Of a stretch of DNA of 45,305 nt, positions 4,034 to 44,080 are shown piece by piece. Below the pieces are notes generated by a model. That model ran no database searches. It saw only the letters and a program-made list of their open reading frames with translations, and was not told where the DNA came from. How positions within the stretch are numbered: position 1 is the stretch's first letter; the number at the start of each line of letters is the position of its first letter. A program made the position numbers and the translations under genes. Source of the stretch: Escherichia virus TH11; the sequence record MT446389.1. One strand, 5' to 3'.

Positions 4034-4585
4034 ATGGCAGAAATTAAAGTTAAGGGCCGACGCGCCAAACTGGACGGACGAGTAGCAGTAACCCCGCGCC
4101 GTAAACCAGGCGAGCAAACCGAGCATACCAATCTCGGACCTGAAATCGAGTACGGCAAGCGCCGTAAAGGCGGCAAATGTGGACGCCCTACTGACTACAG
4201 ATCCGTTTACTGCGACCAGCTTCGCCGCTATTTTGCCGACGCCGACGCCTGGCAGGTCAACTACTCCGATAAAGGCGCTGCGCAAGTAATCCCCCGCAAC
4301 AAAATGCCAACCTTCGGTCGTTTTGCCGCAGAAATTGGCGTAGGCGTTGCCTGCCTGTACCGCTGGGCGCGCGCGCATGAGGAGTTCGCCGAGGCGATGG
4401 CGGACGCTATGGAGCTACAGAAAACTTTCCTGATGGAAGCCGGTGGCGTGACCATCGCGGCAGGCTTCGCTACGTTCCTGCTTAAGGCAAACCACGGCGT
4501 CCGCGACGATGTGCCGCTGGATGACGACGAAGATGATAACGGCGACGTCGTAGTGGAACCTACCGGCAAAGGCCAGGGTGAATAA
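4034..4585 (+). CDS. terminase small subunit
   Basis: Directly upstream of and coupled to large terminase (ATG overlaps stop); basic N-terminus, GRPTDY motif, acidic C-tail; start trimmed to MAEIKVK. Confidence 0.5.
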   Translation: MAEIKVKGRRAKLDGRVAVTPRRKPGEQTEHTNLGPEIEYGKRRKGGKCGRPTDYRSVYCDQLRRYFADADAWQVNYSDKGAAQVIPRNKMPTFGRFAAEIGVGVACLYRWARAHEEFAEAMADAMELQKTFLMEAGGVTIAAGFATFLLKANHGVRDDVPLDDDEDDNGDVVVEPTGKGQGE

Positions 4586-5980: not shown

Positions 5981-7501
5981 ATGACCGTTAACGTTGACAA
6001 CCAGCACCCCCTCTATGCGCGCATCGCGCCAGAGTGGAAAATGATCCGGGATTGTGTAGCAGGGGAGCGCGCTGTGAAGGCGTGCGGCCCTTTGTACCTG
6101 CCACATCCTGCCAGCGGCGACAATACTGACCCGAAATCACGGGCGCGGTATAAGGCGTATAAGCAACGCGCTGTATTCCTGAACGCCACCGCCCGCACAC
6201 TTAACGCGCTGTTAGGCGTTGCCTTTGCTAAACCGGTAAGTCTCGACCTTTCCGGGGCGATGGCGGACCTTATTGACGACGTAGACGGCAGTGGTATGCC
6301 GCTGCCGCAACTCCTGCGCGGTGCTATGTCTGAAGTTCTGCAATCAGGTCGTGCGGGCTTTATGGTGGACTACGATCGCCAGGCGCATTTTGATGAACTG
6401 GGTAACGTAGTACCGCAGACAGCCGCTGAGATGGCGTCACACCGCCCGCTTATCCGCCTGTACACGGCAGAACAGATCATCAACTGGCGGCAGACCCACG
6501 GAGCCGATACGCTGATTGTGCTGAAGGAGACGGACGAAATCAGCACCGAAGACCCGGACGACTTCGCAAACCACGAAGTAACAATCTGGACTGAATTGCG
6601 CATGATTAACGGTGCAGCACACGCCCGCCGCTGGTACTACAACGCCGACACGTCCGAGGTGCAAATGGACTTGCCGCGCGGATTCACCCGCACCGACCTG
6701 GTGCCGCTGGTGGATGCTACCGGTAAGGCACTGACACAACTTCCGTTTTGCTGGTGTGGCGCGGTGGACAACAACGCAACGCCAGACGCCGCTCCGCTGG
6801 CAGATATCGCGTCCATCAACATTAAGCACTACAACGCCGAAGCGGACGTCGCCGAGATCGCGCACATCGTGGGCCAACCTACCCTGGTTGCGACGGGCTT
6901 GACTCAATCATGGGCGGACAAGAACCTGAAGGGAGGCATTGCCCTCGGTGCGACTAAGGGCGTTATCCTGGGCCAGAACATGGACGCTAAACTGATCCAG
7001 GCGGAGGAGCGCAACTTGTCGGTTGCACTGTGTGAGCGTCGCGAGTTGCAAATGGCTAAACTTGGCGCAGCCCTGGTTGAGAAGGGGACCGCACCTAAGA
7101 CGGCAACCGAGGCGGCCTACGATGCGCAGACTGATAACAGTATCCTGTCGCTTATTGCCGGTAACGTTGAGAAGGCTTTCAACCGTGCGCTGCAAATCGT
7201 GCAGCTATTCACGGGCGACACCGCCGACCAGCGCGTAACGCTGAACAAGTTCTACACTGAAATCACGGTTGATGCGCAGCTTATGACCGCGATGATGTCG
7301 GGTGTGCAGACTGGTACGGTCCGACTTGCTGACTTCATCAAGTGGATGATGGCCCAGGGCGTCATTGACGACTCGCAAACCGTCGAGCAGGTGGAAGACG
7401 AATTGCGAAATCAGAATCCATTGCCTCAAATGTCCCCTGATGCGGTAGAATCTACCGAAGAAGACCCGGACAAGGTAGCGGACAATGGCGAGAACGATTA
7501 A
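5981..7501 (+). CDS. portal protein
   Basis: 506 aa immediately after large terminase; acidic C-terminus; RBS AAGGAAA. Confidence 0.8.
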   Translation: MTVNVDNQHPLYARIAPEWKMIRDCVAGERAVKACGPLYLPHPASGDNTDPKSRARYKAYKQRAVFLNATARTLNALLGVAFAKPVSLDLSGAMADLIDDVDGSGMPLPQLLRGAMSEVLQSGRAGFMVDYDRQAHFDELGNVVPQTAAEMASHRPLIRLYTAEQIINWRQTHGADTLIVLKETDEISTEDPDDFANHEVTIWTELRMINGAAHARRWYYNADTSEVQMDLPRGFTRTDLVPLVDATGKALTQLPFCWCGAVDNNATPDAAPLADIASINIKHYNAEADVAEIAHIVGQPTLVATGLTQSWADKNLKGGIALGATKGVILGQNMDAKLIQAEERNLSVALCERRELQMAKLGAALVEKGTAPKTATEAAYDAQTDNSILSLIAGNVEKAFNRALQIVQLFTGDTADQRVTLNKFYTEITVDAQLMTAMMSGVQTGTVRLADFIKWMMAQGVIDDSQTVEQVEDELRNQNPLPQMSPDAVESTEEDPDKVADNGEND

Positions 7502-34877: not shown

Positions 34878-37169
34878 TTACTTCCTGTACCTGTACATAA
34901 TGTCGCCTTCGGCGGCAAGTGGGAAGCCTTTCGCCCAAATAGGCAGGTCGCACATCAGCGCGCAAAGCTCCTCGGTCGTGTAGTCGTCGGTGTCCGGCAC
35001 TTCTGTGATCAATTCGTCGTGTACTGACAGGACGATTTCATATCCGGCAGCTTCAACGCCTGGCATGGACCATGCGAGAATATCGCGGCACAACGCCTGT
35101 ACGATGTTCTCCGTCAGTTTGCCGCCGTAGGTGTACTGGAAGCCCCACTGGCGCGTAGTCTGATTCTCGCCCTGGTATTTGATGCGGGTGCTGGTGCGCT
35201 TCTTGCCGGTGTCTTCGTCAATCTCGGTCGTGACCGACAGCGCGATGCCTGGGTAGCTCATGATGCGCCCGGACGGCAACTCAATTTTCAACCACCACCC
35301 AGCGGCGTTCGGGTCGTCGCGCTCCTCGTCGAAGGTTGGGTCGTGCTTCGCCTTCGTGCGCACAATCTTAAGCGCTTTCCTACCGTCCGGGCGAACGTTC
35401 GCGCCGGCCCAGTATGCTTTGCCAGGATTGCGGATCGCACATAACACCGCGTCCTCAAGCTCGGCCCAAAAGGCTACCGTCTTCGGGTGAGCCTCGCGCC
35501 ACATACGTTTGATTGCGTCACAAGTCAGCCATACGTTTTTCGGCAGTATGTATGTTGGGCGCTCGTCCTTCTTACCGGGCTTCGGCGGGCGCTTCGCTTC
35601 GTTAATGCGGGCGTACTCATAACCACGTTTCGCCGCGGCCCAAATGTGATCCGGGAACGTGCCTTTCATCACGTCCGCCATAGTGTAAAGGTCGAGGCCC
35701 AGGTTTTTAGCGAACTGCAAGAACGCCGCGACGCCGCCACCATAGCCCAGTCCCAATTCACACGCCTTACCGATCTGGCGCAAGTCTTTGCGGTTGGCTT
35801 TGATGTAATCCGGGTCAAGGCCGAACATCTTACCGGCAGTCTCGCAATAGATATCGCGACCGGCCTTAAACACCATTAGCGCGGTTTTCTCGCCCGCGAT
35901 CCAGGCAAGGCCACGCCCTTCCACGTTGGAGTAGTCCGCGACGACAAACTTCTTGCCCTTCGCCGGAATGATGCACCCACGAACGGTCGAGGCGGTCAGC
36001 TTAGATATGTCATACGCCCAGTGCGCGGTCCCGCGTAACAGGGAGTTGATGCCGTTGGTGAGCATGTGCGACCGCACCCAAAACGAGACGTCGCTCTCGC
36101 CTTCGCGGCGCTTAATCTTCCCTTCGTGGTCGTCGCTATACTCGCCGCGTGCCAGGTTTTGCGGCTGGAAGCCTTTACCTGCCCAGCGCAGCGTGCGCTT
36201 TGCACCACCATACTGAAGACACCCACGGCGGCGACCATCTGCGGATAAGCCATTAACGAGCGGATTGTACTTAGTCGAGGCCGTTGATGACGCGCCGAGG
36301 CGCATTTCGATAAGCGCTTTGCCTTCGTCGGGGAAGTCCGTGTCTTCAAGCAGGTCGTTAAGTGTGGATTTCTGCGCGTTGTGGATTGTGAACGCCGGGG
36401 CGATATCACGCAGGATTGGCAGGAAGTCATTGCCTGTCAGTTTACCACCAAATCGCTCCCAGGCTTCCTCCTTCAATTCTTCCTTATGCGCCTGCACCGC
36501 TTTGATCGCGGCGTTCGCCAGGTCAACGTCCACATAGAATCCGCGGTCGTTGATCAACTGGTCAATAAGCAGTATCTCGTCTTCCTTCGGAGTATTACCC
36601 CAGTCCGGTATGCGCCAGTAGACCTCACGCATCGCGATAATATCCAGCGCGGCATATCGCAGAAATTTGGCCCATTCTTCAGGGTGAGTCTCGCGCGTGT
36701 AGCGGCGTATTTTGTAGGTCTTAGGGGTAGGCTTACAGAATCGTTTGATCAGCGCCTTGCCTGCCTTATCCTTCGCGTGCTCTGCGTCAACGCCCAGCAC
36801 CTGACACTGCATATCGAGGCTACCCGGCAGCGCGTGCCGAAAGGCCATAATCATGGTATCTTCGATCTGGCACACTGGCAGGTCAATGCCCCACTTCTCG
36901 CGAATGACCAGGCGGTCAAACAGGAGGCCGTTAGCCATCACGATTTTTGCTTTCTTGCGGCATACCTGGCGGAGCGCCTTGCGCAGTTCACGCGGCATTG
37001 TTGGGGATTCAGTGGCATCCCATGTCTGCACGCGGCCCTCGTCGATGGCGTATGTGCAAATCATAATCTCGGTGGTTGGGTGCTCTGCGTAGGCGTACGC
37101 CCCTACTTTCTTCAGGTCAACCCCGCTGAATGTCTCGGTGTCGAGAAACAGGCGTTCGAAGTCTTTCAT
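34878..37169 (-). CDS. DNA polymerase, family A, with 3'-5' exonuclease domain
   Basis: 763 aa; Exo I motif FLDTETFSG; typical Pol I-like C-terminal polymerase region. Confidence 0.9.
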   Translation of the reverse strand: MKDFERLFLDTETFSGVDLKKVGAYAYAEHPTTEIMICTYAIDEGRVQTWDATESPTMPRELRKALRQVCRKKAKIVMANGLLFDRLVIREKWGIDLPVCQIEDTMIMAFRHALPGSLDMQCQVLGVDAEHAKDKAGKALIKRFCKPTPKTYKIRRYTRETHPEEWAKFLRYAALDIIAMREVYWRIPDWGNTPKEDEILLIDQLINDRGFYVDVDLANAAIKAVQAHKEELKEEAWERFGGKLTGNDFLPILRDIAPAFTIHNAQKSTLNDLLEDTDFPDEGKALIEMRLGASSTASTKYNPLVNGLSADGRRRGCLQYGGAKRTLRWAGKGFQPQNLARGEYSDDHEGKIKRREGESDVSFWVRSHMLTNGINSLLRGTAHWAYDISKLTASTVRGCIIPAKGKKFVVADYSNVEGRGLAWIAGEKTALMVFKAGRDIYCETAGKMFGLDPDYIKANRKDLRQIGKACELGLGYGGGVAAFLQFAKNLGLDLYTMADVMKGTFPDHIWAAAKRGYEYARINEAKRPPKPGKKDERPTYILPKNVWLTCDAIKRMWREAHPKTVAFWAELEDAVLCAIRNPGKAYWAGANVRPDGRKALKIVRTKAKHDPTFDEERDDPNAAGWWLKIELPSGRIMSYPGIALSVTTEIDEDTGKKRTSTRIKYQGENQTTRQWGFQYTYGGKLTENIVQALCRDILAWSMPGVEAAGYEIVLSVHDELITEVPDTDDYTTEELCALMCDLPIWAKGFPLAAEGDIMYRYRK

Positions 37170-37336: not shown

Positions 37337-37350
37337 TTTTCATTGTCCTA

Positions 37351-37377
37351 TTAAAAAGCCCGCATTAAGCGGGCTTG
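37351..37377 (-). terminator. rho-independent terminator on minus strand
   Basis: aagcccgc-attaa-gcgggctt with T-run on the minus strand. Confidence 0.5.
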
Positions 37378-37394
37378 AATAGTGGGCTTTGCCC

Positions 37395-38180
37395 TTAACG
37401 GCGGCGACGTTTACGTGGCGCTTCGTCTTCGTCGTCGTCCTCATCTTCGTCATCGCGTGGCTTACGACGTTTGCGAGGTTTTTCATCTTCCTCATCGTCG
37501 TCATCACGACGTTTTGACTTTTTGGACTTGCGCGGCTTGTCATCTTCATCATCGTCATCACGACGTTTTGACTTTTTGGACTTGCGCGGTGCTTCGTCTT
37601 CGTCGTCGTTGTCGTTGTCCAGGTCTTCATCGGAGCAAGAAGACCCGCCACCTCCGAAGGCTTCGCCGTCTTCACGGAATCGCAGACCCAGCAAGCCAGC
37701 CCCGAGACCTTTGCCGTTGGTATTGTTCCATGCCCAAATATCAAGGGACACGTTGCAATAACAACCGGAGTAGATCTCCTGGCCTTCGATCTCGTCGCCT
37801 TCTACGTTCAGACCTTGTTCCGTCTGCTTCTCGCCGAGTGACGTTTGAATGATCGGCTGTTTGAACGATTTGGCGTTGATATACAACATGCCTTCGAATT
37901 CTTCGGTTACTTCGTCGCGCTCGTCACCGTCGCGAACTGCGCATTCCTTAGAATCCTGGGCGTAGTGGCGGTCCATCCACTTATCGGCATTCTTCTCGGA
38001 TTTCAGCTTATCGGTGAGCACTGCGCGCGCTGCCGCTTCCACTTTGTCCACCTGCGGATCTTCTTTATCCAGAAGAATAACGGCACGGTATGCCGGTTTT
38101 TGACCATCCTGTTTAGGGGTATCACGTTCCCAAATTTTAAGGAAGCATACGCGCACATTTTTCAGGTTGACTTTAGCCAT
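37395..38180 (-). CDS. putative ssDNA-binding protein with charged repetitive C-terminal tail
   Basis: Sits between Cas4-like exonuclease and polymerase; Gly hinge then alternating acidic and K/R blocks ending RKRRRR; start trimmed to MAKVNLK. Confidence 0.5.
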   Translation of the reverse strand: MAKVNLKNVRVCFLKIWERDTPKQDGQKPAYRAVILLDKEDPQVDKVEAAARAVLTDKLKSEKNADKWMDRHYAQDSKECAVRDGDERDEVTEEFEGMLYINAKSFKQPIIQTSLGEKQTEQGLNVEGDEIEGQEIYSGCYCNVSLDIWAWNNTNGKGLGAGLLGLRFREDGEAFGGGGSSCSDEDLDNDNDDEDEAPRKSKKSKRRDDDDEDDKPRKSKKSKRRDDDDEEDEKPRKRRKPRDDEDEDDDEDEAPRKRRRR

Positions 38181-38236: not shown

Positions 38237-38262
38237 TTGGTTGCTAATCTACTTGGTTGCGC
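38237..38262. promoter_or_regulatory. tandem TTGGTTGC motifs upstream of SSB-like gene
   Basis: Two copies 17 bp apart in intergenic region 38202-38270. Confidence 0.4.
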
Positions 38263-38270
38263 CTGAGCGG

Positions 38271-38513
38271 TCAAGCATTTTTATTAAAAAGATTTCGTGT
38301 CACGTAGTTGGTGGCGTTCTCGATCCAGCTTAACGGCGGGCGTTCGATGTTCTTTTCCACCCAATCGACGGCAACTTCGCTATAGCCGTCATCCAGCCAG
38401 CGGGTCGGATGGCGAATCATCCACGCCACCATTAACACGCCTTGCACGCAATGCAGGATAAAGCCCAGCGCTCCGAGCAAAAACATCAATAAGATTGCGA
38501 ATACTTTATTCAT
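38271..38513 (-). CDS. small membrane protein
   Basis: 80 aa with two hydrophobic helices. Confidence 0.4.
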   Translation of the reverse strand: MNKVFAILLMFLLGALGFILHCVQGVLMVAWMIRHPTRWLDDGYSEVAVDWVEKNIERPPLSWIENATNYVTRNLFNKNA

Positions 38514-39936
38514 TGCTTAAGTCCTCGTCAGTAGCTTCCGACCACGCAGGGCGCGGGTCGTCGATTGGTGCTAACACCGGTTTGGCAGGTGCGCGCGTGA
38601 TTTTATCACACAGCTTCGCCCACACTTTCGGTTTTTCGTCCTTCAGTACCTTCTCGGCATCCGTAGGGCTGAGCAATGTTTCTTTGTACATCACATCGCG
38701 CTTGATCCGGGCCTTCGTGAAGATTTCAATAACTTCGCTCTCGTCCGCCCACTTACGGATCCCTTCCTTACCGGCAACCATCTTGAGGCCCAGCGATTCG
38801 CCATCGCCCGCCATAACCGCTTTGAATACCGCGGACTCGATAGCCTTGATGTGCTGGCGCATTGCGTCAAGACCTTCATATGCCTTGCGCAGTTCCGCCG
38901 CGCTCATAGCGCCTGGTGCCGCTTCTTTCTCACCACGCTTCGCACGTCGTGCCGCTTTGCGGGCTTCGCGGGCCATATTGCGGTCGTGATTGGCGCATTC
39001 TTCCTCTGTCGCAATACTCACGTCGTCGCCCAGGTCTTCGTCTGTTGCCGTTGGTGGGGTCATCGTGTCGATTGCAGCCTTAGCGCGGGCGCTACACTGA
39101 TCCGCAAATCTGCACCACTGGCACGCATCGACGCTGGGCCGGAAGTCTGCGCGGGTTAGTCCCTTTTTGCCGCGGGCGTACGCTTCCAGGGCGGCGATAG
39201 CACGCTTGGACGCAAACTTCGCGAATATCTCCAGGGCTTCTACAGAAATATCCCACTCCGACGCCCCGCCGCAATACGGCTGGAAGATAACCAGGCGCAC
39301 GGTCGTAATATCGTACATGGTTTGCAGCTTGCGCAGCAGGCCCAGCGCATACAACATAAGCTGTTTGTTTTCTTTCGCCTCGACCTTATGTCGTCCCGTC
39401 TTCAGGTCGCCAACAATCAGCATGTACGTGCCGTCGGTCTTCTTCATGACCATGACCATATCGGCAGTACCGAACGTCTTAACCCGGTTGCCGTCGATCT
39501 CGAAGCCGGAGTGTAGGACGCGGGTAAGATCGGCGCGCATCTCAAGCTGAACAAACTCCGCCACTTCGAGGAGCGGTCGCCAGTGGTCGATGTATGCGTC
39601 GCACTGTTTCACCATATCGTCGTTGACCAGTACGCCACCTTTCGGTGCTTTCGGGTGCGCCTTTACCGGTCCCTTACCTTCGTTCTCTACGTAGCACCCT
39701 TTGTACGTCTTCGCTGTTATTCCCTTCTCACCGGCGATAATGCGGTTGAGCACGACTTCAGATACGGTGTGCATACTCGTACCGTTAATCGCCGCCTGCC
39801 CGGATTCGTTCGGGATATCTTTTTCTACCACCAGGGCGGCAGGGCAACCCATCCATTTTTTAGCACCGGATGGGCCGAGTAAAGAGTGTTCCGTGTTGCT
39901 ACCGGATTGCGTTTTACGTTTTGGTTTAATCGCCAT
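38506..39936 (-). CDS. Cas4-like PD-(D/E)XK exonuclease
   Basis: N-terminal GPSGAKKWMGCPA and C-terminal CQWCRFADQC give a Cas4-type four-Cys pattern; long charged C-terminal extension. Confidence 0.7.
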   Translation of the reverse strand: MAIKPKRKTQSGSNTEHSLLGPSGAKKWMGCPAALVVEKDIPNESGQAAINGTSMHTVSEVVLNRIIAGEKGITAKTYKGCYVENEGKGPVKAHPKAPKGGVLVNDDMVKQCDAYIDHWRPLLEVAEFVQLEMRADLTRVLHSGFEIDGNRVKTFGTADMVMVMKKTDGTYMLIVGDLKTGRHKVEAKENKQLMLYALGLLRKLQTMYDITTVRLVIFQPYCGGASEWDISVEALEIFAKFASKRAIAALEAYARGKKGLTRADFRPSVDACQWCRFADQCSARAKAAIDTMTPPTATDEDLGDDVSIATEEECANHDRNMAREARKAARRAKRGEKEAAPGAMSAAELRKAYEGLDAMRQHIKAIESAVFKAVMAGDGESLGLKMVAGKEGIRKWADESEVIEIFTKARIKRDVMYKETLLSPTDAEKVLKDEKPKVWAKLCDKITRAPAKPVLAPIDDPRPAWSEATDEDLSNE

Positions 39937-40554: not shown

Positions 40555-41073
40555 TTAGTCTTCCAGTTCGAAATAAGTCTCGACGATTTCTTTTAAATCT
40601 TTGTGGAAGTCTTCGACGTCGTCGTCTTCCAGCTTGGCGATTGATTTGATCTCGAACGCTTCCAGCAGGTCGTCAAATTCGTCGTTAGCATCGTCGTCAT
40701 CGCCACCGGCGATAATCGCGGCGTACTGCTTGATCTCGTCGCGCATCTCTGCCAGCGGATCGGCATCTTTCTTCCCTTTGCCTTTCGCCGGAGCTTTTTT
40801 ACCCTTCGCCGGTTTTTCGTCTTCGGCTTCTTCATCGTCGTCATCTTCTACGACTTCTTTTTTGGCCTTACCTTTAGCCGGGGATTTTTTAGATTTAGCC
40901 GGTTTTTCGTCTTCGGCGTCATCGTCGTCATCTTCGACAACTTCTTTTTTGGCCTTAGACGGCTTCTTATCTTCCTGTTTACCAACGGCAGCGCCAACGG
41001 TTTCATAATGCTTTGCAATGGTTTCCAGTGCTACTACGCCGCGAGTGATCAGGTTTACGATTTGCTCAAACAT
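40555..41073 (-). CDS. charged tandem-repeat protein, candidate DNA mimic or nucleoid-associated factor
   Basis: 172 aa from internal ATG with RBS GGAGAT; two in-frame repeats KKEVVEDDDD..EDEKPAK.KK.PAKGK; first gene of leftward early operon. Confidence 0.55.
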   Translation of the reverse strand: MFEQIVNLITRGVVALETIAKHYETVGAAVGKQEDKKPSKAKKEVVEDDDDDAEDEKPAKSKKSPAKGKAKKEVVEDDDDEEAEDEKPAKGKKAPAKGKGKKDADPLAEMRDEIKQYAAIIAGGDDDDANDEFDDLLEAFEIKSIAKLEDDDVEDFHKDLKEIVETYFELED

Positions 41074-41269
41074 GGTATATCTCCGATTGGTTAAGTTTAG
41101 GTGTCGGCAGTTAACTTCGTCGCTGGCCTTAACATATTGCCAGGTTACGCGTTCTCCCGTTCGGGTAGTGGACCTGGTTATATAATCACGGTTGGGAATC
41201 CTGACACTTCGATCCGGCCCCTGCGTTGCCCCTCTCCAGTTTGCGTCCTGCATCCTGTCGACGGAGTGA

Positions 41270-41299
41270 ATGATAGATTGGTTGCAGGATAGGTGTCAA
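41270..41299 (-). promoter_or_regulatory. candidate early leftward promoter with operator-like motif in spacer
   Basis: Minus strand TTGACA, 18-nt spacer containing TGCAACCAAT, TATCAT. Confidence 0.4.
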
Positions 41300-41310
41300 C
41301 AACTAATTTC

Positions 41311-41346
41311 AAAAAAAAAGCGCCGAGGCAAAATGCGACGGCGCTA
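41311..41346 (-). terminator. rho-independent terminator on minus strand
   Basis: 7-bp stem AGCGCCG/CGGCGCT followed on minus strand by nine T. Confidence 0.45.
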
Positions 41347-41368
41347 ACCAATAAGAGACAATGAGACG
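41311..41368 (-). ncRNA. candidate short leftward transcript (about 58 nt)
   Basis: Minus-strand TTGAAA, 16 nt, TAATAA promoter about 60 nt upstream of the terminator; no ORF. Confidence 0.25.
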
Positions 41369-41415
41369 AGAATTATTATTACACGCGTGCGCGCCCGTTT
41401 CAATATCCAAAGGAT

Positions 41416-41444
41416 TTGACACCGTGCAGTTTTGGGTGTAGTTT
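41416..41444 (+). promoter_or_regulatory. candidate rightward sigma70-like promoter
   Basis: Perfect -35 TTGACA at 41416-41421, 17-nt spacer, weak -10 TAGTTT, upstream of gene at 41476. Confidence 0.4.
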
Positions 41445-41475
41445 CGTTGGTCATTAACCAACTGAGGGCAGAGCA

Positions 41476-41805
41476 ATGAATGTAAACGACGCAATCGAAA
41501 TGTTAACGAAGACTGTTTGCAGTGAGACAAGCCGGTCGTGGGCATACACCGATGCCGTGGGGGCTGTGTTATTTGAAATCGAACGACTGCGGCTTACCGA
41601 AAAAGAATTGCGCGCCAGGCTGGAACTACTCAACGGTACAGCAGCAAGCAAGCTGCAAAAACACAATGAAGAAATGGAAGAATACAAAAAGCAGGTTATC
41701 CGTTTGCGCGCCGAGGGTAAATCATGGGCGATGATTGCCGAGTTGACCGGGATTAATCAGAGCACAGTGCGCTCCTGGGTACGCAATAATAAAACTTCTA
41801 AGTAA
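41476..41805 (+). CDS. HTH DNA-binding regulator
   Basis: 109 aa; C-terminal KSWAMIAELTGINQSTVRSWV is a helix-turn-helix; first gene of rightward operon. Confidence 0.55.
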   Translation: MNVNDAIEMLTKTVCSETSRSWAYTDAVGAVLFEIERLRLTEKELRARLELLNGTAASKLQKHNEEMEEYKKQVIRLRAEGKSWAMIAELTGINQSTVRSWVRNNKTSK

Positions 41806-41815
41806 GGCCACGGCA

Positions 41816-44080
41816 ATGAGCTTGATTAAATTCGCTGTAACAAAACCCGCTAAAAAAGGCGAAAAAGCCAGGGCGGAAAACTTCCAGATGACGACCGATG
41901 AGTTTTTCGAATTTATCAAAGATGCGAAAGAAATCTCCTCGGTGCATATCAACAAGACGGAAGATAAAGCCGAGTATGCGCGCCGCAAGCGTAAGGCCGA
42001 TGGCATCGTGGCGTATACCAGTGACGGATTGCGTCGTAAGACCAGTGCGGTGGACCGCTCGATCCTGTTCTTTGATATTGACCGCACCGACACCCGCACC
42101 CTGCGCCGCTGCCGTAAGGCGTTCATCGACGCGGGACTGGAACATGTATTTCACACCACAACCGGCGACCGCCACCCGCTGAAAGGTGGCACGCGTTGCG
42201 CTCGTTTCCTGGTGCTCACCGACAAGCCTGTACCGGCGGAAGACCTAGGCCGCGTACAGTATGCACTGTTACACCAACTGGGCCTGTCAGATGTGGACTT
42301 CGATGATTGTACGAAAGACACAAACCGCCTTATGTACCTACCACACCAGCAGTCCGTTGTTAAGTGTCACTACGGCAAACGTGCCCGCGTCCGTCGTCTG
42401 CTTCGCCTGGCGGATAAGCTGGGAGTGGAAAAAGAGGAAGTACGACGCGAACTGACCCAGGGCGATGACGGCGTGGCTGACGGTATTCTGGATTGGTGCT
42501 TCCAGGCGGGATTCGAACCGCTGTCGTCCGGTCGTGGTTATGAAGTGCCATGCCCGAACGAACACCTGCACAGTGGTGAAGGGTCCACCGCTATCATGGT
42601 TAAGGATGGCGAGATCCGTTTCAAGTGTATGCATACCGGCAACGAGTGTTGCTCGGAGCTGAACAGACACCAGCACCTGGCGCTACGTCTTATCGGGATC
42701 CCGGACCACCTGAACGTCGAACCGCACAACATGTCACGTAAGCAAATCGCCGCCATCCTTCCAGGACTGGACGACGAGGAAGTGGAATCGTGCTATGCGC
42801 ATATCGTTGATGCGGTCGGAGACGGCGACGAGTACGGCGGATGTACAGATGCAGACCTGGACAACGAGCCGGTTGCGCTGTTCAGTAAGCACGACCCGAT
42901 CATCGAGGGGCTGATTAACTTCAAATCGACCTGGTATCTTGCTGGCGAGTCGAACATCGGTAAATCGTTCTACGTGCTGGGCCAGATGGCGTCAGTATCT
43001 GCCGGTATTCCGTTCGGCGGCGCGAAGGTCGTCCAGTGCCACAACTTCTATTTCGACGCGGAAGGTGGTGAAGCCTCCAACCAGCGTAAGGAAGCATTGC
43101 AGATCAAATATGAGCACGACCTGGACAAGCTGCACATTATCGATCTGCAGTCACGCGGCTGGGATATCACCAGCAAATCCGGCTTGCGTGAAGTTATCAG
43201 CTTTATCAACCGCACCGCTAACGGCGAGCCGGTTGGCCTGGTGGCGTTCGACTCACTCAACCAGACTGTCGCGTTGCGGTCAGCCGATGCTAAACCGTTC
43301 GACGAGAACAACGCCAGCGATATGGGCGAAGTGGTCAAAGCGCTGAAGGCTATTGCGGAAAACACAGGCGGCAGTGCGGGAGTCATCCACCACCCGGCGA
43401 AAGGTGCAAACGGCAGCAGATCTCCCCGCGGGTCCGGCGCGCTGCATGGTGCTGTCGATTCCGCGTTCTTCCTGGAGCAACCGGACGACAATCAGCCGGG
43501 CCAATTGAACCTGTACCATGAGAAGGCACGTAACGGCATCAAGCAAGCGCCGCGCGGCTTCGTCCTGCTTAAGTGCAAGGTTAAGGTGGATCTCCGCAAG
43601 TCAGAGGCGTTCGAATCGCACCAGTCCACCAGCACCGGGCCTGACTTCGGTGATGTGGTTGCAGGATGGGACGTCAAGCCGATCGCATCAACGCCACGCG
43701 ACGAGACTCTTTACCTCGTACCTGTCGCCCTGGCACCGTTCGCTATTGAGCAGGCGAAGGCCGCGGGTAAGGCAGCAGTTAAGGAAGAGAACCCCGCAGG
43801 ACCGCGCAACGAAAAAGAGAAAGTGCTTTATGCGGCGCTGGAAAAACTGATGGAAGATAACCCGGACCATACCGGATTCAGTAAATCGGCAATCGTCCGC
43901 CAGGCTGGACTTGCGAAAGGTGGCACATCGACGAAGGCAATAGACGATATGGTCGAGCGCGGCGTGCTCGGTTTCTATACAGATCCGCACACCGGGGCCA
44001 TCTATGGGTCATCGAATATCGTCATCAAAACGAATATACCCATCACGCTTTCGGCGACCGATGATGATTTAAAAGATTAA
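41816..44080 (+). CDS. bifunctional primase-polymerase / helicase
   Basis: N-terminal AEP-like FFDIDRTD, Cys/His zinc cluster, C-terminal Walker A AGESNIGKS and Walker B LVAFDSL. Confidence 0.8.
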   Translation: MSLIKFAVTKPAKKGEKARAENFQMTTDEFFEFIKDAKEISSVHINKTEDKAEYARRKRKADGIVAYTSDGLRRKTSAVDRSILFFDIDRTDTRTLRRCRKAFIDAGLEHVFHTTTGDRHPLKGGTRCARFLVLTDKPVPAEDLGRVQYALLHQLGLSDVDFDDCTKDTNRLMYLPHQQSVVKCHYGKRARVRRLLRLADKLGVEKEEVRRELTQGDDGVADGILDWCFQAGFEPLSSGRGYEVPCPNEHLHSGEGSTAIMVKDGEIRFKCMHTGNECCSELNRHQHLALRLIGIPDHLNVEPHNMSRKQIAAILPGLDDEEVESCYAHIVDAVGDGDEYGGCTDADLDNEPVALFSKHDPIIEGLINFKSTWYLAGESNIGKSFYVLGQMASVSAGIPFGGAKVVQCHNFYFDAEGGEASNQRKEALQIKYEHDLDKLHIIDLQSRGWDITSKSGLREVISFINRTANGEPVGLVAFDSLNQTVALRSADAKPFDENNASDMGEVVKALKAIAENTGGSAGVIHHPAKGANGSRSPRGSGALHGAVDSAFFLEQPDDNQPGQLNLYHEKARNGIKQAPRGFVLLKCKVKVDLRKSEAFESHQSTSTGPDFGDVVAGWDVKPIASTPRDETLYLVPVALAPFAIEQAKAAGKAAVKEENPAGPRNEKEKVLYAALEKLMEDNPDHTGFSKSAIVRQAGLAKGGTSTKAIDDMVERGVLGFYTDPHTGAIYGSSNIVIKTNIPITLSATDDDLKD

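Follow-up and report, generated by a model that had tools for sequence, protein, structure and literature searches.

A conserved charge-block tail on the Enc34-type single-stranded DNA-binding protein of Escherichia virus TH11 and an acidic-hydrophobic motif shared with two other replication proteins

The genome sequence of Escherichia virus TH11 (MT446389.1; its 45,305 nucleotides are referred to below as the window) contains at 37395..38180, on the reverse strand, a gene whose product is almost certainly an Enc34-type SSB (a protein that binds single-stranded DNA, ssDNA). This identity was already known, close relatives being annotated accordingly. Here, we describe the tail of this protein, which is a conserved new variant on a known kind of SSB and of which no description was found in the literature searched. 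The tail consists of alternating acidic and basic blocks, ends in a run of arginines and is maintained by purifying selection. Overall, the explanation we favour, with moderate confidence, is an SSB whose core is followed by a glycine hinge, a docking motif and a charge-block extension. The most useful new lead is the sharing of a short S/T-D-x-D-L motif by three replication proteins of the phage, namely the SSB, an exonuclease and a primase-helicase.

The tail (residues 176-261) reads FGGGG-SSC-SDEDL-DNDNDDEDEA-PRKSKKSKRR-DDDDEDDK-PRKSKKSKRR-DDDDEEDEK-PRKRRKPR-DDEDEDDDEDEA-PRKRRRR and thus comprises four acidic and four basic blocks with a final RKRRRR. It opens with an acidic segment of about 14 residues, and the basic, P-R/K-rich blocks span P198-R207, P216-R225, P235-R242 and P255-R261. 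Among 85 residues there are 28 K/R and 36 D/E, which corresponds to a charged fraction of 0.74 and a net charge per residue of -0.09. The charged residues fall into only 8 runs, compared with 32.5 ± 3.9 in 20,000 shuffles (minimum 18), and a local charge-patterning measure reaches 0.43 versus 0.09 ± 0.03. An earlier note on this DNA had described a Gly hinge followed by interleaved acidic and basic blocks ending in RKRRRR, and both the translation and the charge-run shuffles bear this out. The in-frame repeat of roughly 50 bp that it had placed at 37484-37590 comes close to the 54-bp unit delimited by Tandem Repeats Finder (TRF; 37492-37609), the copies of which match at 87%. In an AlphaFold2 (AF2) model built on 56 homologues, the tail shows predicted local distance difference test (pLDDT) values of about 47-65 with a short helix at residues 184-187 (DEDL), and it is predicted to be disordered.

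The folded core belongs to a well-defined family. Pfam PF10991 (Enc34_ssDNA-bd, formerly DUF2815) matches residues 3-194 with 110.3 bits (cut-off 26; E 1.1e-31), PHROG 112 matches with an E value of 6.6e-55, and phmmer retrieved the solved proteins 4klk and 4jg2 (DUF2815) as well as 5odj/5odk (Enc34 SSB), with E values of about 1e-11 for 4klk, 4jg2 and 5odj. The AF2 core has a pLDDT of 92-98 over residues 1-170, and its top Foldseek matches are 4klk, 5odl (Enc34 SSB-ssDNA), 5odj, 4jg2 and 1je5 (T7 gp2.5), all with a probability of 1.00. With T7 gp2.5, the type of oligonucleotide/oligosaccharide-binding (OB) fold is common (1je5, E 5e-7) at a sequence identity of 11-16%. These results support the SSB-like call made in the earlier note, which had named a comparison with OB-fold SSB families (T7 gp2.5-like, DUF2815) as a check; a gp2.5-type OB fold is predicted with high confidence. 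The canonical bacterial-type SSB family PF00436 gave no match at E <= 0.01, and the C-terminus is RKRRRR, not DDDIPF. A comparison with NCBIfam gave no family for this SSB, for the exonuclease, for the primase-helicase or for the 172-residue protein encoded at 40555..41073 that is discussed below.

Enc34 ORF6 and the other PF10991 proteins (5ODJ/5ODK/5ODL, 4KLK, 4JG2) have the Pfam family and the fold in common with the TH11 SSB. Enc34 further shares the hinge (DGEAFGGG), a stacking Trp plus Asn, a disordered tail that opens acidic and the gene order duf2800-SSB-polA. Preferential binding to ssDNA has been demonstrated for Enc34 ORF6 only (PMC5686142). Its DNA-contact residues Trp150 and Asn154 align with W149 and N153 of TH11, whereas the column of the second stacking aromatic, Tyr156, holds N155 with W151 adjacent, and that of Lys46 holds A30 with K28 two residues earlier. 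The main difference lies in the tail. In Enc34, which ends in WDEDEV, and in the other solved members the tails are purely acidic and about 20-30 amino acids long, whereas the TH11 SSB carries about 64 further residues, in which acidic and basic blocks alternate, and ends in RKRRRR.

To place this tail among its relatives, homologues were collected from 5.8 billion proteins. Those with at least 44% core identity have a length of 210-290 amino acids, except for the fragments P0012 and P0021 (P numbers are our handles for homologues), and alternating acidic and basic blocks occur in all of them apart from these fragments and the frameshifted P0002 and P0005. The blocky tails usually end in RRRR(R) or RRRRNRDED. 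Homologues with at most 37% core identity, in turn, are 170-200 amino acids long and carry short acidic tails with a hydrophobic last residue; the exceptions P0085, P0098, P0105 and P0117 show blocks plus an acidic-hydrophobic end. At 37-39% core identity, phages SETP3 and Bas70 retain a minimal acidic plus PRRERRRR unit: the tail of Jerseyvirus SETP3 has one acidic and one Arg block (...VDDLEDDEDETPRRERRRNR), Kagunavirus Bas70 shows the same layout (...VNDLEDDEEDEAPRRERRRR), and three blocks are present in Serratia phage Otaku. Matches to the core occur in 681 phage records, and an exhaustive HMMER scan of 1.84 billion cluster representatives yielded 2125 family members at E <= 1e-3, with truly mixed tails in about 13 of the 146 newly listed 50%-identity cluster representatives. 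By these counts, the mixed tail is a minority architecture that is recurrent in the family. The purely acidic character of canonical SSB tails, as stated in the earlier note, holds within the Enc34/DUF2815 family (PMC5686142; 54 acidic-tail homologues).

The overall charge of the tail is similar in both architectures, with a net value of -8.3 ± 4.4 in 62 blocky and -8.0 ± 2.3 in 54 canonical tails. The K/R and D/E counts correlate (r = 0.82), and the added units are charge-neutral supplements to a canonical net-negative tail. As a separate observation, the SSB of an unrelated temperate-like phage (locus L008 on an IMG 3300031180 contig; genes 4088-4522 and 6009-6791) has a block tail that evolved independently (...RRDDDDVV). 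A small upstream protein of the same replication module ends in ...GEEEDDVV, matching the end of this SSB.

As the earlier note had stated, the neighbours of the SSB gene are a Cas4-like exonuclease (DUF2800/PD-(D/E)XK; 38506..39936) and, on the other side, the DNA polymerase (family A; 34878..37169), each separated from it by a single small open reading frame (ORF); a primase-helicase (41816..44080, forward strand) diverges from these leftward replication genes. The pattern [STNA]D[DEA]DL has 5 matches in the six frames of the 45-kb window versus 0.3 expected, and all 5 fall within three proteins, with one in the SSB, two in the exonuclease and two in the primase-helicase (Table 1). In the DUF2800 nuclease, a disordered region is the site of the shared motif. 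Among relatives, the SSB copy is kept as (T/N/S)D(D/E)DL or DDLE. The motif also co-varies across lineages: the copies in the SSB, at the exonuclease C-terminus and at the primase-helicase C-terminus read VDDLE, TEDDLE and TEGDLE in SETP3, VNDLE, TEEDLE and TEEDLE in Bas70, and TDDDL, SDEDLA and TYDDLE in Otaku. The C-terminal copy of the primase-helicase was seen only in the blocky-tail clade. For locus L043, which has a short tail, and locus L039 no primase-helicase homologue was found; the SSB and exonuclease copies are PDDFDDISEGADAGELI and NDFDDVSDDALAADLI in the former and PTDFSDL and PTDFQPV in the latter.

In short-tail relatives, the last 20 residues of the exonuclease mimic the entire SSB tail, and the two co-vary (DDFDDIS...ELI versus DFDDVS...DLI). 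This match was quantified by BLOSUM62 local alignment of the SSB tail with the last 20 exonuclease residues across 74 non-redundant loci. SSB tails scored 28.7 against the exonuclease end of their own locus and 22.5 against those of other loci (permutation p < 5e-5, with kinship ignored), compared with 18.7 for shuffled cognate exonuclease ends and 13.6 for polymerase ends. Copying between the two tails at the DNA level was considered and rejected; the DNA likeness is codon-level only, and the similarity resides in the protein.

By analogy, the motif is probably a docking peptide common to the SSB, the exonuclease and the primase-helicase, a reading for which the T7 gp4/gp2.5 tails and the grooves in DUF2815 crystals set the precedent. 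In T7, which likewise carries a matching acidic-hydrophobic peptide on its SSB and its helicase-primase, the C-terminal DTDF peptide of gp4 is bound to gp5 in PDB 6P7E, the gp2.5 tail has been modelled at the DTDF site by alignment, and simulations place the gp2.5 tail on the front basic patch of gp5 (PMC12339929). In crystals of Enc34 ORF6, of both other DUF2815 proteins and of gp2.5, the proximal tail occupies the beta-sheet groove of a neighbouring molecule (PMC5686142). TH11 differs from T7 in that its exonuclease carries the motif as well.

Based on these observations, we propose that the protein acts as the replication and recombination SSB of the phage, and that its tail is organized in three layers, a Gly hinge, an acidic docking segment and a charge-block extension. 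The proximal motif and the first acidic block would form a canonical-type tail; we infer that the motif probably docks either on the polymerase or in the groove with which the SSB itself binds ssDNA, and that it would so recruit partners and compete with DNA. The clade-specific extension comprises between one and four units that are roughly charge-neutral and in which a P-R/K-rich block comes after an acidic one. Its end is nearly always a run of Arg, either alone or with a few acidic residues added. The extension keeps the net charge near -8 and, at the same time, adds multivalent, oppositely charged stickers. On the most economical reading, acidic and basic blocks of neighbouring SSB tails may pair with each other, and the basic blocks may also touch nucleic acid. 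The outcome would be a higher cooperativity on ssDNA, a concentration of replisome components and faster annealing together with the partner exonuclease. That tail-to-tail pairing represents the main role of the blocks is a tentative suggestion drawn from their sequence.

Two known systems offer a comparison. T4 gp32 contains a basic N-terminal K/R/S/T-rich cooperativity peptide (LAST motif) and an acidic C-terminal partner-binding segment, and the PRKSKKSKRR blocks resemble the basic peptide. However, gp32 belongs to an unrelated fold family and has these segments at opposite ends and unrepeated, and no homology is claimed. The blocky Arg-rich polyampholyte regions of eukaryotic condensate proteins likewise combine a very high charged fraction and a near-neutral net charge per residue with a segregation into alternating stretches of like charge, each of about 7-11 charges and mainly Arg. 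Here, in contrast, the region is one of 85 residues in a bacterial virus with a charge decoration that is not extreme (see below), and the likeness, known here from sequence, is an analogy only.

A rather unlikely account, which can be compatible with tail pairing, is that the basic blocks mainly bind nucleic acid and, like histone H1 or other Arg-rich arms, hold on to neighbouring ssDNA, double-stranded DNA (dsDNA) or RNA primers. Such arms would accelerate the strand annealing that a gp2.5-type annealing protein is expected to carry out together with the exonuclease encoded next to it, or they would anchor the SSB at junctions between single- and double-stranded DNA. The gp2.5-like proteins count as ssDNA-binding and annealing proteins (PHROG 112; PMC8093625), and the basic residues of the tails are mostly Arg (832 R versus 316 K). 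Furthermore, Enc34 SSB with its tail deleted binds dsDNA (PMC5686142), showing that tail charge tunes DNA selectivity in this family, and a docking motif on the exonuclease is consistent with an exonuclease/annealase pair. However, every basic block has an equal acidic one beside it and the net charge stays negative, which should weaken DNA binding by the tail alone.

The tail could also represent a neutral low-complexity expansion, in which slippage in GAT/GAC/AAA-rich codons inflates a tolerant region with no function beyond its acidic part. We consider this improbable. It would account for the 54-bp tandem repeat, for the varying number of two to four blocks among near-identical phages, for the hypervariable and deletable repeat in the nearby 40555..41073 and for the frameshifted tails of P0002 and P0005. 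However, the ratio of nonsynonymous to synonymous polymorphism (pN/pS) within Dhillonvirus, calculated over aligned codons, is as low in the tail (0.08) as in the core (0.06). The duplicate PRKSKKSKRR units of sister Dhillonviruses (L001, L010, L012, L014) differ at 7 of 36 nucleotides, all of them synonymous. As the peptide is kept while the DNA diverges, pure slippage junk is unlikely and a role as iteron or origin is rejected. In TH11 itself the first 36 nucleotides of both units are identical (36/36; 37506..37589), which suggests recent gene conversion or re-duplication of the repeat units in this lineage. Among phages of at least 95% identity (218-261 amino acids), none has lost the first acidic block or the final PRKRRRR. 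Equally at odds with neutrality, homologues keep the acidic plus Arg-rich unit over the whole range of core identity from 100% to 37%, such a unit also emerged in further lineages, the acidic and basic counts co-vary with the net charge held near -8, and the frameshifted forms are single-member clusters, compared with 537 members for the intact P0003. It is therefore very probable, in our view, that the block pattern is functional.

Five points weigh against the favoured explanation of a hinge, docking motif and functional extension. First, the sequence charge decoration of the tail is -1.18 versus 0.02 ± 1.02, a value undercut by 11% of the shuffles and hence not extreme. Given this value and a multi-block rather than diblock arrangement, strong compaction or phase separation is not predicted by this measure, and a predicted strong compaction of the tail was dropped. 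Second, relatives of at least 95% identity have between two and four blocks, indicating that the valency is not tightly fixed. Third, P0002 (phage vB_EcoS-22664B1) and P0005 show a 1-nt frameshift just past the DDDL motif (equivalent of 37395..37630), which shifts the blocks into a different reading frame (...MTKMKHRARLRSPNVV...GFLLGQ) and lets translation run past the terminator. Either the sequencing was at fault or the mutant is viable despite lacking the charge blocks; P0002 stems from an isolated phage, both keep only DDDL and, if real, they would make the blocks dispensable for plaque formation. Fourth, the co-variation tests ignore phylogenetic non-independence, and they support the pattern rather than prove it. 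Fifth, T7 requires a C-terminal Phe as the key hydrophobic residue, whereas the corresponding residue in TH11 is a Leu that, in the SSB, is internal, lying 74 residues from the C-terminus with the charge blocks after it.

Shaping by host defence, with blocks that alter the sensing of SSB-coated ssDNA (by retrons or DARNA) or hide the acidic tail, is very unlikely. Phage SSBs do trigger Retron-Eco8 and promote DARNA activation, the number of blocks changes fast between close phages, and the DUF2800 nuclease of Dhillonvirus Bas14 triggers the retron type IX Sen3. The protein B14T, which, judging by its name, we take to come from BASEL phage Bas14 (TheodorHerzl, a Dhillonvirus), would be the orthologue of the TH11 exonuclease. 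Nevertheless, the C-terminal tail of the T7 SSB is not needed for activation of Retron-Eco8, deletion of the C-terminal Phe does not stop DARNA toxicity, and the strong purifying selection on the blocks agrees better with housekeeping than with an arms race. The SSBs of T7, T4 and T5 are the subject of the papers on Retron-Eco8 and DARNA, which contain nothing on a tail of the TH11 type, and the Dhillonvirus trigger in the Retron-Eco7 paper is a protein of unknown function, not the SSB.

A role of the repeats at the DNA level, for instance as a recombination hotspot or as iterons of an origin that lies within a replication gene, like that in lambda gene O, with the peptide as by-product, can practically be dismissed. 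Direct repeats do lie within a gene of the replication module and a second repeat is found 3 kb away, but there are only 2.2 copies, and the synonymous differences between sister-phage units with unchanged peptide are the opposite of DNA constraint. In distant relatives, the peptide pattern persists on DNA that is unrelated, the module showed no initiator of the kind that binds iterons, and the AT-rich divergent region at 41-42 kb makes a stronger candidate for an origin. This region (41000..42000) has the lowest GC content of the window (0.475) and is the place where the leftward replication genes and the rightward primase-helicase diverge. It is preceded by the late-window local minimum of the cumulative GC skew at 40-41 kb, a profile that merely follows the direction of transcription. 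On sequence grounds, it is the better candidate for an origin or early promoter than the tail repeats.

Table 1. Location of the SSB gene, its parts, the shared motif and flanking signals in the TH11 window
Feature	Position	Strand	Evidence or remark
SSB gene, PF10991/Enc34-type, T7 gp2.5-like	37395..38180	-	Pfam E 1.1e-31, PHROG 112 E 6.6e-55
OB-fold core, residues 1-175	37656..38180	-	AF2 and Foldseek
Gly hinge GGGGSSC, residues 176-182	37635..37655	-	FGGGG nearly invariant in family alignment; pLDDT <50 at 177-180
SDEDL proximal acidic-hydrophobic motif, residues 183-187	37620..37634	-	1 of 5 pattern matches in window
Charge-block extension, residues 188-261	37398..37619	-	Charge runs, low pLDDT (about 47-53, up to 61 at last residue), pN/pS, clade conservation
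Tandem DNA repeat, 54-bp in-frame unit, 2.2 copies, encodes PRKSKKSKRRDDDDEDDK twice	37492..37609	-	TRF
TDEDL, exonuclease C-terminus (...EATDEDLSNE*)	38518..38532	-	Pattern scan
TDEDL, internal, exonuclease after nuclease domain (TATDEDLGDD)	39031..39045	-	Kept in some relatives only
TDDDL, primase-helicase C-terminus (...SATDDDLKD*)	44057..44071	+	Pattern scan, relatives
TDADL, primase-helicase linker before AAA_25 domain (CTDADLDNEP)	42845..42859	+	Pattern scan, relatives
Promoter-like TTGACC-17-TAGATT upstream of SSB gene	38246..38274	-	Consensus match only
Hairpin AAGCCCGC-TTAAT-GCGGGCTT followed by T run, about 20 nt past SSB stop	37353..37376	-	RNA folding

The SSB ORF encodes 261 amino acids plus stop and starts at ATG 38180, preceded by a GAGGA Shine-Dalgarno (SD) sequence. 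A longer form starting at GTG 38201 was rejected because homologues begin with MAKVNLKN or MGIKVNLKN and not there. The gene is 100% identical to the copy in Escherichia virus TH13 and matches 154 phage records, almost all of them Dhillonvirus coliphages, whose annotations for it are hypothetical, DUF2815 or 'Gp2.5-like ssDNA binding and annealing protein'. The gene order duf2800 - SSB - polA is present, with no second ssb gene nearby; this duf2800-gp2.5-polA module has already been described (PMC8093625).

For the promoter-like site upstream of the gene, one was found versus 1.0 expected in shuffles; an annotated promoter exists at the equivalent position in SETP3. Downstream, the hairpin with its T run is likely an intrinsic terminator; it folds with -24.6 kcal/mol (z = -4.7) and is absent from the pattern-scan output. 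Overlapping genes at 37340..37744 (-), 37382..37852 (+) and 37471..37761 (+) were rejected, these frames being open through repetitive GAN/AAR codons, and also because the frameshifted products P0002 and P0005 form single-member clusters. Between the exonuclease and the SSB, ORF 38271..38513 (-) encodes 80 amino acids assigned to PHROG 11211 (function unknown). Its N-terminus is strongly hydrophobic (MNKVFAILLMFLLGALGFILHCVQGVLMVAWMI), and the product is likely a small membrane protein within the replication module. In SETP3 (L005, 8676-11774 and 12972-15437), the polymerase has 1032 amino acids versus about 730-760 in relatives, which suggests that it contains an insertion element. The SNF2 helicase of SETP3 is annotated as intein-containing; both the polymerase insertion and the intein are absent from the TH11 window.

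The gene at 40555..41073 (-) encodes 172 amino acids (PHROG 3127, function unknown), its likely true start being ATG 41073 with a GGAG SD sequence and not the annotated upstream ATG 41253. The protein is composed of a conserved N-terminal helix, a hypervariable charged linker formed by a 90-bp x2 repeat (40781-40957) and a C-terminal part, acidic, helical and likewise conserved, whose almost invariant DEFDDLLE motif resembles the ancestral DDFDDL motif of SSB and exonuclease. Its AF2 model is poor (mean pLDDT 49). The earlier note had suggested an interaction shared through the repeats of the SSB tail and of this protein, which we could not substantiate. The linker is not blocky in several relatives, and the protein varies in length between 115 and 179 amino acids even among close relatives, some of which lack the repeat altogether, whereas the SSB always keeps an acidic plus Arg-rich unit. 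In contrast to the SSB blocks, this repeat is thus a disposable spacer. The DNA of the SSB repeat resembles 40901-40974 (75% over 75 bp; E 1.6e-5 within the window, a weak match) because both share a GAT/GAC/GAA/AAA codon composition, and both may plausibly be prone to repeat expansion wherever runs of codons are rich in GA(T/C)/AA(A/G). A hidden Markov model of the protein matched exactly 20 blocky-tail loci and 0 of 69 other SSB loci (68 short acidic plus L008), which makes it a possible SSB partner; as this concerns one clade, it is only a lead.

A bolder picture, which we regard as doubtful, is that of a portable 'tail code' in phages of the Dhillonvirus/Guernseyvirinae type. One S/T-D-x-D-L peptide would dock the SSB, the Cas4-like exonuclease and the primase-helicase on a common hub, and the Arg-terminated multi-block polyampholyte tail would zip SSBs on ssDNA, perhaps together with the 40555..41073 protein, so that a small siphovirus would possess a replication/recombination assembly or condensate.

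SSB tails serve as a switchboard of replisomes. According to the textbook rule, restated in the Enc34 structure paper, the tails of bacterial and phage SSBs are acidic (PMC5686142). A selected, charge-striped and Arg-terminated tail in large, well-sampled groups of coliphages and Salmonella phages (Dhillonvirus, Jerseyvirus SETP3, Kagunavirus Bas70) departs from this rule. Moreover, a partner exonuclease that copies the SSB tail family-wide provides a testable docking code for the widespread and barely studied duf2800-gp2.5-polA module, in a group that includes BASEL phages with which triggers of retrons and other defences have already been identified. Should cooperative assembly be driven by the blocks, the tail would be a compact natural case of charge-pattern-encoded assembly in a bacterial virus.

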